From Malacoraja senta (Eukaryota), in assembly GCA_038087875.1 (NCBI GenBank), contig CM075994.1, positions 7,628,001-7,692,000 on the forward strand: a stretch of DNA of 64,000 nucleotides. Direction: 5' to 3'. Below the pieces are notes generated by a model. That model searched no databases. It was not told the origin of the DNA and worked only from the letters and a program-made list of their open reading frames with translations. Made by a program: the position numbers and the translations under genes. How positions within the stretch are numbered: the stretch's first letter is position 1; each line of letters starts with the position of its first letter. This document shows positions 9,641 to 13,600 of the stretch, piece after piece.

Positions 9641-10404
9641 TAACATGTACCCTCATCGCTCAAAGCCCTGCTGTTTCATGCTATAAAACCCAACACGCCT
9701 TCAATACTTGCTTTACCTGATTGTGGTCTAGTGGTGGCACTACACGGTGGTGCAGCGGTAGAGTTGCTGCCTTACAGCGCCACAGACCCGGGTTCGATCC
9801 CCTCAACAGGTGCTGTCTGTACGGAGTTTACACGTTCTCTCTGTGACCTGCCTGGGTTTTCTCCGGGTGCTCCGGTTTCCTCCCACACTCCAAAGACGTG
9901 CGGGTTTGTAGGTTTTTTGGCTTCGGTAAAATTGCAAATTGTCCCTATCGTGTGTAGGATAATGCTAGTATATGGGGAGATCACTGGTTGGCGGGCCGAA
10001 GGGCCCGTTTCCGCGCTGTGTGTCTAAACTAAACGAAAAAATATATCCCTGTGGAGTTACTGTACACTGAGGCAAAGGTCCATTGTTAGTGCTGTGGTCA
10101 GGATGAACCCCTGCCTTTAGCATTAAAACAATAACACACACACAGATGGATACACACCCCCACTGTACAGATACCCTGATACATGAGCAGAACACAAAGT
10201 GCTGGAGGAACAGGCAGCATCTGGAAATGGACAGACGGCATTTCGGGTCATAGAGTAATAGAATTTTACAGGGTGGAAACAGGCCCTTCGGCCCAACTTG
10301 CCCACACCCGCTAACATGACGTTTCGGGTCGAGACCTTTTAGCTGAAGATTCTCGCATGTTTCGTTTCTTGTCCATTCCTGGGAAACGAACCTGCATCAC
10401 TCAC

Positions 10405-10585
10405 CGATCGAGGAAGCGACCGACTGCAGCTGTAAAGGGATTGCAGCGTTGGCGATGGGACGAATGGTCTTGCTTGGAGCTCCTCCCTGACACAGAACCT
10501 CACTGGACCGACCACAACCCCCGGCGCTAGGAGCTGAGATGTACCGAGACTCCTTTCAGCAAACACAAAAATCGACTCCAACGCC
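10405..10585 (-). other. Probable non-coding first exon of the stonustoxin-like gene
   Basis: Unique, CpG-containing island among repeats. Strong donor CG|GTGAGT at 10405/10404. TATA-like AATAAATA at 10618-10611 and IRF element at 10678-10667 upstream. The 5' boundary is an estimate. Confidence 0.55.
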
Positions 10586-10666
10586 AGCGGCGATATCTGC
10601 AGAAAAAGGCTATTTATTCTCCAGTCATCTCCGCACCGGAGATTGGAAGGAATTCCGTGAAAATAC

Positions 10667-10678
10667 ACTTTCACTTTC
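10667..10678 (-). promoter_or_regulatory. IRF-binding element / ISRE (GAAAGTGAAAGT)
   Basis: Exact match to the IRF-E consensus GAAA(G/C)(T/C)GAAA(G/C)(T/C), about 50 bp upstream of a TATA-like element. NF-kB-like core GGAATTCC at 10649-10656. Confidence 0.6.
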
Positions 10679-13600
10679 GGTCTTAATGTGCAGAAACAAG
10701 GAACAGTGTCTCACGGAGTAGGTGACCACAAGCGAGGGCGGTGCTCACCAGATGCAGCAAGCTGGCTTGTTTATAGGTTTCTTCAACTTTATGTAACCCT
10801 TGCTTTGCCTCTCTCACCCCCACCCACCCCGTTCTCTGACTAATGCCACTATGCTGAGTGTCACCGAGATGAGGAAAACCCTTTTCACCCAGAGAATTGG
10901 CCTCTACTGCCACAGACGGCAGTGGAGGCCAATTCACTGGATGTTTTCAAGAGAGACTTAGAAGAAGGGTCTCGACACGAAACGTCACCCATTCCTTATC
11001 TCTAGATATGCTGCCTGTCCCGCTGAATTACTCCAGGATTGTCTATCTTCTGAGAGTTAGATTTAGCTCTTAGGGCTGACGGAATCAAGGGATATGGGGA
11101 GAAAGCAGGATCAGGATACTGATTTTGGATGATCAGCCATGATCATATTGAATGGCGGTGCTGGCTCGAAGGGCTGAATGGCCTACTCCTGCACCTATTT
11201 TCTAGCTTTCTTTGTCCTTTTGATTACTTCGTGGAGGAAAGAACTGCAGAAGCTGGTAAACACTGAAGATAGACACAAAATGCTGGAGTAACTCAACGGG
11301 ACAGGAAGCATCTCTGGAGAGACGGAATGGGTGATGTTTCAGGTCGAGACCCTTGTTCAGACTGAGAGTCAGGGGAGAGGGAGACACAGAGATAAGGAAG
11401 GGTAAGGTGTGAAAATTACAGATGAAGTCAGGAAGGTGAAGTCAGTCTGAAGAAGGGTCTCGACCCAAAACATCACCCATTCATTCTCTCCAGAGATGCA
11501 GCATGAGTTACTCCAGCATTTTGTGCCGAACTGAAGTTTAGTTTAGAGATTCAGCACGGAAACAGGCCCTTCGGCCCACCGAGTCCGCACTGACCAGCGA
11601 TCACCCTGTACACTAACACTATACTACACACACGAGGGACAATTTACAATTATACCAAGCCAATTAGCCTACAAATCAGTACGTTTGTTGTATGGGAGGA
11701 AACTTGAGCACATGGAGAAAACCCACACAGATGACGGGGAGAATGTAGAAACTCCGTACAGACAGCACCTGTAGTCAGGATTGAACCTGGGTCTCTGGCG
11801 CTGTGAGGCAGCAATTCTACCGCTGCGCCACCGTGCCGCACAGTTGTGTGGGTTCAGTCACCCTCCACGCCCACAGTAATCGGTCGAGACTCAAGTTACT
11901 TTCCTCATCAGTTTTTTGGAGCACTGTGGCGCAGCGGTAGAGTTGCAGTCTCACAGCGCCAGAGACCTGGGTTCAATCCTGACTACAGGTGCTGTCTGTA
12001 TGGAGTTTGTACGTTCTCCCCATGACCACATGGGTTTTCACTGAGATCTTCAGTCTCCTCCCACACTCCAAAGACCTTCAAGTTTGTAGTTTAGTTGGCT
12101 TGGCATAAATATAAATTGCCCCTTGTGTGTGTAGGGTGGTGTTTAGGAGCGTGGATCGCTGGTCGATGCGGACTCAGTTGGCTGAAGGGCCTGTTTCCGC
12201 GCTGTATGTCTAAATTGAAAAAAAAAAATCAACACAGGAAGGAAACTAGCAGATACCGCCCAGTGGTTTGAGCTAACATAAAGCCACAGAGTTCAGAAAT
12301 TGCAGTGAAAAACAGAGAGTGGATGTTGGAACAAAATATAGACATAGATGAGTTAGATAGAGCTCTTAAAGATAGTGGAGTCAAGGGATATGGGGAGAAG
12401 GCAAGAACGGGGTACTGATTGTGGATGATCAGCCATGATCACAGTGAATGCCGCTGCTGGCTAGAAGGGCCGAATGGCCTACTCCTGCACCTATTGTCTG
12501 TATACAAACTGCTGGAGGAAGTCTGCAGGAAGGAACTGCAGATGCCGGTTTACACCAAAGATAGACATAAACTTACCGAATGGTGAACGGCCTGACTAGA
12601 GAGGATGTTTCCACTAGTGGGAGAGTCTAGGACCTCACTAAAGAACGTTCCTTTAGGAAGATGACGAGGAATTTCTTTAGTCAGAGGGTGGTGAATCTGT
12701 GGAATTCATTGCCTCAGAGGGCTGTGGAGGCCGTCAATGGATATTTTTAAGGCAGAGATAGATAGATTCTCAGTTTGTATGCGTGCCAGAGATTATGGGA
12801 AGAAGGCAGGAGAATAGGGTTAGGAGGGAGATAGATTAGCCATGATTGAATGGCGATGGGCCAAATGGCCTGATTCTGCTCCTAGTACTTATGAACATTA
12901 AAATACTGGGAACTTTGCAGGTCGGGCAGCATCTCTGGAGCCATTGAGTCATAGATCATGGAAACAGGCCCTTCGGCCCAAGTTGCTCCCACCAGCCCAC
13001 ATGTCCCATCTACTGGGCCTGTACTCGAGTGTAGAAGGATGAGGGGGAACCTCATGGAAACATACCGAAAGGCCTGGATAGAGTGAATATTTACAGGATG
13101 TTTCCACTGGCGGGAGAGTCTAGGACCAGAGGGCACAGCCTCAGAATAAAAGGGCGTACCTGCAGAATGGAGATGAGGAGGAACTTCTATAGCCAGAGGG
13201 TAGAATTTTATTGCCACAGACGGCGGTGGAGGCCAAGTCAATTGGGTATTTTTACAACAGAGGTTGATAGTTTCTTAATTAGTTACTGCATCAAAGATTA
13301 TGGGAAGAAGGCAGGAGAATAGGGTTGTGATGGAAAAATAGATCAGCCATGTTTGAATGGCGGAGCAGACTCGATGGGCCAAATGGCCATGTTCTGCTCC
13401 TATGTCTTATGAACTTATAAGACTTCTCAAAATGATTTTCAACTTAGATTTACTGGGCTAGATATTTTCATTTAGTGAGAGGTGATGGGTGTGACGGTAA
13501 TTAACAGTACAGTCCAAAATGCTTATCACTGCTCTGTTTTTAAACACGACAGTAAAACAAACAAACATGGGACTAAAGCCAAGGAAAATAGTATCGACCA

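Follow-up and report, generated by a model that had tools for sequence, protein, structure and literature searches.

A predicted composite ISRE and GAS interferon-responsive promoter on a stonustoxin-like MACPF-GTPase gene of the skate Malacoraja senta

Introduction

Close pairs of an interferon-stimulated response element (ISRE) and a gamma-activated site (GAS) mark a described class of promoters of interferon-stimulated genes (ISGs) that includes GBP (PMC5985295; PMC10287828). In GBP, the ISRE is juxtaposed with the GAS and both contribute to type I and type II responses (PMC5985295). Here we describe 64,000 nucleotides from the skate Malacoraja senta (GenBank assembly GCA_038087875.1, contig CM075994.1, positions 7,628,001 to 7,692,000; this whole stretch is called the window), in which a predicted pair of this kind lies at the 5' end of a minus-strand gene for a toxin-like GTPase. 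The original prediction for this locus saw an interferon-type promoter on the gene and took its product for an immune effector rather than a venom component.

Like the promoters of the composite ISGs (GBP, IFI35, BST2, IRF9, PARP14, TRIM69), the predicted skate promoter combines a proximal interferon regulatory factor (IRF)/ISRE site with a GAS a few bases apart. Its GAS core is that of IFI35 and its ISRE core that of IFIT1/2. Unlike these promoters, it comes from a cartilaginous fish, is predicted only, and has an extra IRF site in intron 1; its ISRE has AC- for AG-, as do those of IFI35 and AIM2.

The encoded protein can be compared with several described families. Stonustoxin (PDB 4WVM) has MACPF, helical and thioredoxin-like domains in the same order over ~490 residues, but the skate protein lacks the PRY-SPRY domain, adds two fibronectin type III (FN3) domains, a GTPase and a stalk, measures 1,292 versus ~700 residues, and belongs to a non-venomous host. 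GIMAP/AIG1, Toc34 and septins share the G domain fold and the G1/G3/G4 motifs (matches at 14-21% identity), whereas the skate GTPase is fused C-terminally to a pore-type domain, carries a Cys/His stalk and has no hydrophobic anchor. In its predicted way of working, namely interferon-type control of a membrane-aimed GTPase/MACPF effector, the protein resembles GBP, IRG, Mx and GVIN as well as MPEG1/perforin-2. However, its GTPase passes no GBP, Mx or IRG Pfam cut-off, and MPEG1 is a luminal membrane protein (PMC7593815) whereas the skate protein is leaderless.

It has already been proposed that stonustoxin-like genes of non-venomous fish serve in immunity (PMC12107551; PMC10566576; PMC11657881). 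Cartilaginous fishes possess all three interferon types (PMC6640115); among the articles listed in our search, none dealt with ISG promoters of a skate or shark.

An ISRE and a GAS in a non-repeat island

Judging from the sequence, we consider it fairly probable that a composite ISRE and GAS promoter responsive to interferon controls an ancient immune effector at this locus. The predicted promoter lies in a unique island at 10319-10862, detected by self-BLAST of the window, 61% of which is covered by repeats. The CpG observed/expected ratio was 0.82 for the island versus 0.52 for the whole window, and the depth of mapped runs was 0-280 on the island versus 10^4-10^6 on the repeats either side. 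These runs (X2, X4, X9 and X12) are four of 12 listed sequencing runs, and were mapped on 7250-10900. The non-repeat island of the original prediction, which would hold the promoter, exon 1 and the start of intron 1, was thus borne out by the self-BLAST gap. This gap and the low depth also ruled out a high-copy repeat as the source of the IRF motif.

Five words had been predicted on the minus strand (GAAAGTGAAAGT, GGAATTCC, AATAAATA, GTGAGT and GAAACGAAAC), and all five were recovered there exactly and in place. Among them the IRF site is the informative motif. This IRF-E/ISRE, GAAAGTGAAAGT (10667-10678, minus; plus strand AC-TTT-CAC-TTT-CG), has one mismatch to AGTTTCNNTTTCN and is an exact match to GAAASYGAAASY, which we take to be the IRF-E form, so that it is near consensus for ISRE/IRF-E. 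Four bases from it we found a word absent from the original prediction, the STAT1-type palindrome TTTCACGGAAT (10652-10662, minus), a GAS of the form TTCN3GAA whose core TTCACGGAA lies at 10661-10653. It has one mismatch to the consensus TTTCNNNGAAA taken from PMC10287828. Both elements have near-identical counterparts among the tested human elements in Table 1 of PMC5985295: the centre of the IRF site, TTT-CAC-TTT-C, is that of the IFIT1/IFIT2 ISRE, and the plus strand of the GAS, TTC-CGT-GAAA, equals the IFI35 GAS save for the first base. The TATA-like AATAAATA (10611-10618, minus) has one mismatch to TATAWAWR. A second IRF site in intron 1, AGAAACGAAACA (10358-10369, minus), holds GAAACGAAAC at 10368-10359 and shows no mismatch to the fish ISRE consensus (G/A/T)GAAAN1-2GAAA(G/C)(A/T/C) (PMC3688568).

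Chance levels were estimated by shuffling. For GAAASYGAAASY, 60 dinucleotide shuffles gave an expectation of 0.2 copies in 64 kb, and one was observed; the strict IRF site GAAANNGAAASY arose in 1.0% and two GAAAN1-2GAAA sites together in 0.27% of 20,000 island shuffles. A strict IRF site and a GAS no more than 30 bp apart are found together at one place in the window; the same pairing came up in 0.04% of the island shuffles and in 1.7% of 120 whole-window shuffles. Across the window the looser forms are not rare (GAAANNGAAA, 4 observed versus 2.9 expected; GAAAN1-2GAAASY, 2 versus 1.5). Taken alone, GGAATTCC (4 strand-hits versus 3.4 expected in the window) is at chance level, and so is the TATA-like word: allowing one mismatch, the minus strand has 169 matches to TATAWAWR, or ~0.13 in every 50 bp.

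We then compared the island with the mapped runs. X2 was guessed to be RNA and flagged as probably DNA, X4 was guessed to be RNA, and X9 gave several contigs per position, so that it probably represents several paralogues. Reads from SINE and LINE repeats (short and long interspersed elements) dominate the mapping, and the statements below rest on 40 of 322 difference rows and 15 of 6,979 joints listed. All seven changes listed for X9 within 10600-10690 lie outside the 26 bases of the cores (P=0.086, not significant); the IRF site is among the unchanged parts, and one of the changes is a 2-base loss in the linker between IRF site and GAS. The single X2 contig has 11 listed changes in the same interval, two of them in cores (P=0.34). 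At position 10658 the relatives differ such that their GAS becomes TTCCCGGAA, which is nearer to consensus; this holds for X2 and for 114.8 of the 140.1 depth in X9. The TATA-like position 10616 is unchanged in X9 (0 of 182.4 depth) and altered in the X2 contig. Conservation of the motifs in relatives, which had been put forward as a check, thus gave a divided answer: the X9 cores are unchanged and the GAS is nearer to consensus, but an IRF core base and a TATA base are altered in X2. At the level of sequence, conservation of the promoter elements is suggestive at best, with this one counter-example.

The word GGAATTCC (10649-10656, minus) overlaps the GAS. Against GGGRNWYYCC, which we take to be the NF-kB consensus, its best fit leaves two mismatches in every register on either strand. 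Both relatives that cover the word have a different last base: X2, and X9 at 140.1 of its 150.1 depth. We rejected GGAATTCC as an NF-kB site on these grounds and because of the overlap; it is best read as a flank of the GAS. This reading points to an ISRE and GAS composite of the GBP/IFI35 kind rather than to an IRF and kB promoter like that of interferon-beta. Of the promoter as originally predicted, the IRF sites on the 5' island of the gene stand, whereas GGAATTCC gives way to the GAS.

Exon structure and 5' end

Three exons were assigned to the minus-strand gene. Non-coding exon 1 (10405-10590) has a 3' end supported by an X4 contig and a predicted 5' end; transcription would start near 10590, given the usual spacing from the TATA-like AATAAATA, and no ATG was found in 10610-10405. 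The splice donor GTGAGT of intron 1 occupies 10399-10404, the X4 contig (record 16) ends 2 bases before it, and G|GTGAGT is one of just six minus-strand instances in the window. Intron 1 (7491-10404) consists mostly of SINE and LINE repeats, as seen from self-BLAST and run depth. Exon 2 (7364-7490), which is covered by an X2 contig piece, contains the start codon at 7451-7449 and 29 codons, with an in-frame TGA upstream within the exon. Exon 3 (428-4200) is one open frame, P0001, to the stop codon. Neither AATAAA nor ATTAAA follows the stop codon in window positions 1-427 (minus), and the 3' end of the gene lies beyond the window. An acceptor-like CCTTTTTCTGCAG stands at 10609-10597 (minus) directly after the TATA-like word, which itself also contains AATAAA.

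Contigs of two related organisms support the boundaries of exons 1 and 2. The X2 piece corresponds to 7363-7491, that is, exon 2 plus one G on each side shared with the neighbouring exon, which is the mark of a spliced molecule. X4 record 16 covers 10407-10537 and carries another 53 letters. Were it joined across 10405/7490, its first letter would fall at 7440, and a neighbouring contig ends at 7469; the overlap thus computed is 30 letters, as expected for 31-letter words if the overlap rule that we infer holds. X4 also has zero depth at the unique intron positions 10353, 10385, 7886 and 8016 and upstream of 10537. The original prediction had called for reads joining 10405 to 7490: the overlap arithmetic fits such a joint and suggests it, but the joint is not among the 15 listed. 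The exon evidence from relatives supports the view that the toxin-like GTPase gene has its 5' end in the island. In X12 (raw poly(A) reads, ~6% of the run) exons 1 and 2 have no coverage; this run may stem from an unrelated organism, and we counted the result neither way.

Protein architecture and family

The protein of 1,292 residues is intact and leaderless. The N-terminus encoded by exon 2 matches annotated skate proteins and has no signal-peptide-like hydrophobic stretch, and a hydrophobic anchor is absent, hydropathy over 19 residues reaching at most 1.48, within the MACPF part. Lacking a leader, the product is probably cytosolic and would act inside the cell.

Residues 7-496 of P0001 (2732-4200, minus) comprise stonustoxin-like MACPF, helical and thioredoxin-like domains (PF24674, PF21109, PF18078) and match the stonustoxin structure 4WVM with E values of 2e-100 (chain A) and 2e-98 (chain B). 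They are followed on the same strand by two FN3 domains (2180-2743; PF00041, two stretches) and a GIMAP/Toc34/septin-like GTPase (1300-1996), on which the Pfam AIG1 and Septin profiles score alike. GATGSGKT, DTPG and a TFAD of G4 type, which we take to be its G1, G3 and G4 motifs, are intact and largely invariant in 48 aligned sequences. The GBP/Mx/IRG profiles do not fit this GTPase (Dynamin_N, 18.5 bits versus a cut-off of 27; no GBP or IIGP row). A long helical stalk, into which a conserved Cys/His cluster is inserted, completes the protein (548-1258, minus). A structure model of the last 574 residues, built with the 48 aligned sequences (mean pLDDT 75, pTM 0.53), places the stalk helices at 299-346 and 434-535 of this fragment, in which C373, C376, C380, C384, C395, C404, C407, C411 and H416 are invariant. 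The nearest structures to the model are GIMAP7, Toc34/33 and GIMAP2 (14-21% identity), then septins.

Among 7,986 candidates scored, 1,271 homologues were found at E <=0.001. The best 120 of the 1,271 begin with 11 skate proteins at 79-89% identity and also include rays, sharks, chimaera, sturgeon, gar, teleosts, salamanders, turtles, lizards, alligator and ratites; no mammal is among these 120. In a tree of the window protein, 38 of the 120 listed homologues and two coral proteins, the window protein fell within a 13-member all-skate clade (support 1.0). This skate-specific expansion of paralogues fits an immune family.

In a metagenome scan of 73 loci (L001-L073), the whole architecture occurred in two (L008, positions 635-4510, and L009), each time as an intronless MACPF-FN3-FN3-GTPase frame, and a weak N-terminal match in one (L073). 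The 90% cluster of L008 holds a named protein of the coral Orbicella faveolata; relatives from Porites, Acropora and Montipora are listed. Since the whole architecture is present in corals, it would predate jawed vertebrates. No IRF-like site was found upstream of L008 and L009 in 634 and ~300 bases, which are too short to weigh and are not vertebrate promoters.

Discussion

The best explanation is that the island serves as proximal promoter to a skate gene with three exons, whose cytosolic product is a stonustoxin-like MACPF-FN3-FN3-GTPase protein. The predicted module would consist of the IRF-E/ISRE and the GAS 4 bases apart, ~45-55 bp upstream of the TATA-like box, plus the second IRF site in intron 1. 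Under type II interferon, a STAT1 dimer would bind the GAS and IRF1 would then occupy the IRF sites to raise transcription; type I/III interferon would have the same effect through ISGF3 or IRF1 bound to the ISRE, as in GBP1, IFI35 and further composite genes. The leaderless product would act inside the cell, where the GTPase and stalk would most likely assemble on a pathogen-associated or infected-cell membrane and license the MACPF pore. Pore formation, GTPase gating, factor binding, induction and the start site are all steps that we infer.

Several points weigh against an interferon-responsive promoter of this kind. A zero-mismatch ISRE, GAAACAGAAACT, occurs at 25724-25713 (minus) without promoter signs. 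As the looser motifs are common too, it is position that carries the argument. The IRF and GAS pair was selected after the fact, and a GAS alone is present in 22% of island shuffles. The upstream IRF site carries C where the ISGF3 consensus has G. In relatives, the depletion of changes from the cores is non-significant in both X9 and X2, and the X2 contig has the G of the second GAAA in the IRF core and a TATA base altered. The 10405-7490 joint is missing from the 15 listed, and an X2 contig (depth 10.3) reads through the predicted start, from 10489 to 10731; the same run yields an intron-side contig (depth 8.2) too, which indicates unspliced or genomic material as a possible source of the former. 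On the protein side, MACPF PF24674 scores 25.3 bits, just below its cut-off of 27. The expression literature points both ways: rises of such transcripts in infection or vaccination speak for an immune effector, the carp data only in part. A transcript named after stonustoxin rose in carp infected with GCRV-II (log2 7.63), but neoverrucotoxin-named transcripts went down in the GCRV-I group (PMC5465539; a search of its supplements gave no match). So-named transcripts were higher in virus-resistant salmon (PMC7316828), vaccinated charr (PMC6369366) and sick barramundi (PMC8249934), but none of the transcripts from these four fishes is tied to the GTPase-bearing form. Finally, the accessible text of a zebrafish ISG survey (10.1101/693333) names no such family, nor does that of a 2026 fish ISG review (PMC13030082).

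Other explanations of the island share part of this evidence. The IRF sites might drive steady IRF1/IRF2/IRF8 expression in barrier epithelium or leukocytes, so that the gene would encode an immune effector little induced by interferon. Such a role would suit the upstream site, which is closer to the IRF-E form than to that of ISGF3, the contigs with spliced exon ends in X2 and X4, which come without known stimulation, and the basal occupancy of ISRE motifs by IRF1 (PMC5985295). Yet a GAS beside the ISRE depends on the phosphorylation of STAT1 and is a hallmark of composite genes that are inducible (PMC10287828; PMC5985295), and we regard steady expression as unlikely. We are a little more doubtful still that 10596-10405 forms an internal exon or follows a different, upstream start, with the IRF and GAS words incidental or part of an intronic enhancer only. 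The acceptor-like CCTTTTTCTGCAG right after the TATA-like word would suit an internal exon, as would the X2 contig that reaches 10731 with a broken IRF core; moreover, Inr (YYANWYY) has no match in 10610-10500, and neither 5' ends nor a pile-up of them near the predicted start were seen in the mapped runs. Against it stand the unique CpG-rich island, the zero depth of X4 upstream of 10537, the short pyrimidine tract with other AGs just upstream, and the exon 2 in-frame stop, which bars a coding fusion with the upstream TRIM gene, a gene that has its own AATAAA at 28849.

The primary-response promoter that the original prediction implied, with IRF and NF-kB sites as in interferon-beta, draws on the position of GGAATTCC 10 bp from the IRF site and on its presence in just 1% of island shuffles. 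We give it little credence in view of the two mismatches in every register, the last base altered in X2 and most of X9, and the overlap with the GAS. A venom or skin-toxin gene deserves hardly any weight. Residues 7-496 are strongly like stonustoxin, which is presumably also leaderless, and MACPF, helical and thioredoxin domains are all present. The PRY-SPRY domain and the length of ~700 residues that belong to the definition of the toxins in PMC10566576 are not. The protein is nested in an all-skate clade (support 1.0), which by lineage is not a venomous one: it is to stingrays and their allies that PMC13253327 attributes venomous caudal stings, and toxic stonustoxins are restricted to Scorpaenoidei (PMC10566576). 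The same architecture occurs in sharks, turtles, alligator, ostrich, salamanders, many teleosts and corals. The claim of an immune effector instead of a venom component therefore fares well in its second half, venom being very unlikely given the skate clade and the non-venomous holders of the architecture, while interferon control is a prediction.

Within the literature searched, which leaves most subscription journals outside, neither the MACPF-FN3-GTPase architecture nor an interferon element on a stonustoxin-like gene is described, and six homologue gene identifiers appear in no main text. The promoter would be of a textbook kind and its target, within these searches, an undescribed variant of the stonustoxin-like family. 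More tentatively, and with less confidence than for the promoter itself, the gene may belong to an ancient, expanded and so far undescribed animal effector family, ranging from corals to ratites, that unites a membrane-targeting GIMAP/septin-like GTPase and a perforin-like pore domain in a single chain, much like a GBP with its own executioner. In jawed vertebrates this family may have come under the composite control of type I/II interferon, and it may have been the stock of PRY-SPRY fish toxins such as stonustoxin. Immune defence has been proposed as the ancestral job of stonustoxin-like proteins; a GBP-like composite promoter on a leaderless MACPF-GTPase would name the stimulus, the factors and the compartment, and so make that proposal directly testable. 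If this holds, non-mammalian vertebrates would widely share an intracellular interferon effector that forms pores, and cartilaginous fishes, in which elements of this sort have received little study, would offer a candidate IFN-gamma/STAT1 target promoter.

Neighbouring loci and the GTPase module

A complete TRIM gene (51482-28968, minus) lies upstream in the same orientation as the toxin-like GTPase gene. Its RING exon, identified by a RING match, begins with the ATG at 51482, further exons lie near 43190-43100, 40309-40079, 38690-38668 and 31030-30914, and the PRY-SPRY exon ends at 28968, followed by the AATAAA at 28849. The TRIM promoter has GC-box/CCAAT elements without IRF sites, which argues that the IRF sites of the island are not regional background. 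A TRIM-to-toxin coding fusion was excluded by the in-frame stop in exon 2 and the TRIM poly(A) signal. That a PRY-SPRY gene adjoins a stonustoxin-like gene without PRY-SPRY is suggestive of domain shuffling, as far as the sequence goes. The ISRE GAAACAGAAACT sits in a short inter-repeat gap 3 kb beyond the TRIM gene, and exon 1 lies 15 kb further downstream. No GAS was found within 100 bp of this ISRE, and chance or a distal enhancer are suggested explanations. LINE retrotransposon copies occupy 21393-25387, 15300-18900, 5591-6874 and 33806-35740 on the plus strand. One copy has a near-intact GDSL-esterase ORF1 and an endonuclease-RT (reverse transcriptase) ORF2; the others are broken.

In the metagenome scan, the L008 cluster has very many close paralogue-like relatives. 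L073 (8675-11281) and L067 (8621-11509) encode divergent proteins of 868 and 962 residues with the same GTPase; L073, with its weak match to the MACPF part, adjoins TPR-rich genes and a second similar open reading frame. The GTPase, stalk and Cys cluster without the MACPF part were found in 70 of the 73 loci, many of them short contigs and many very AT-rich, and this module seems to be a widespread eukaryotic one in its own right.

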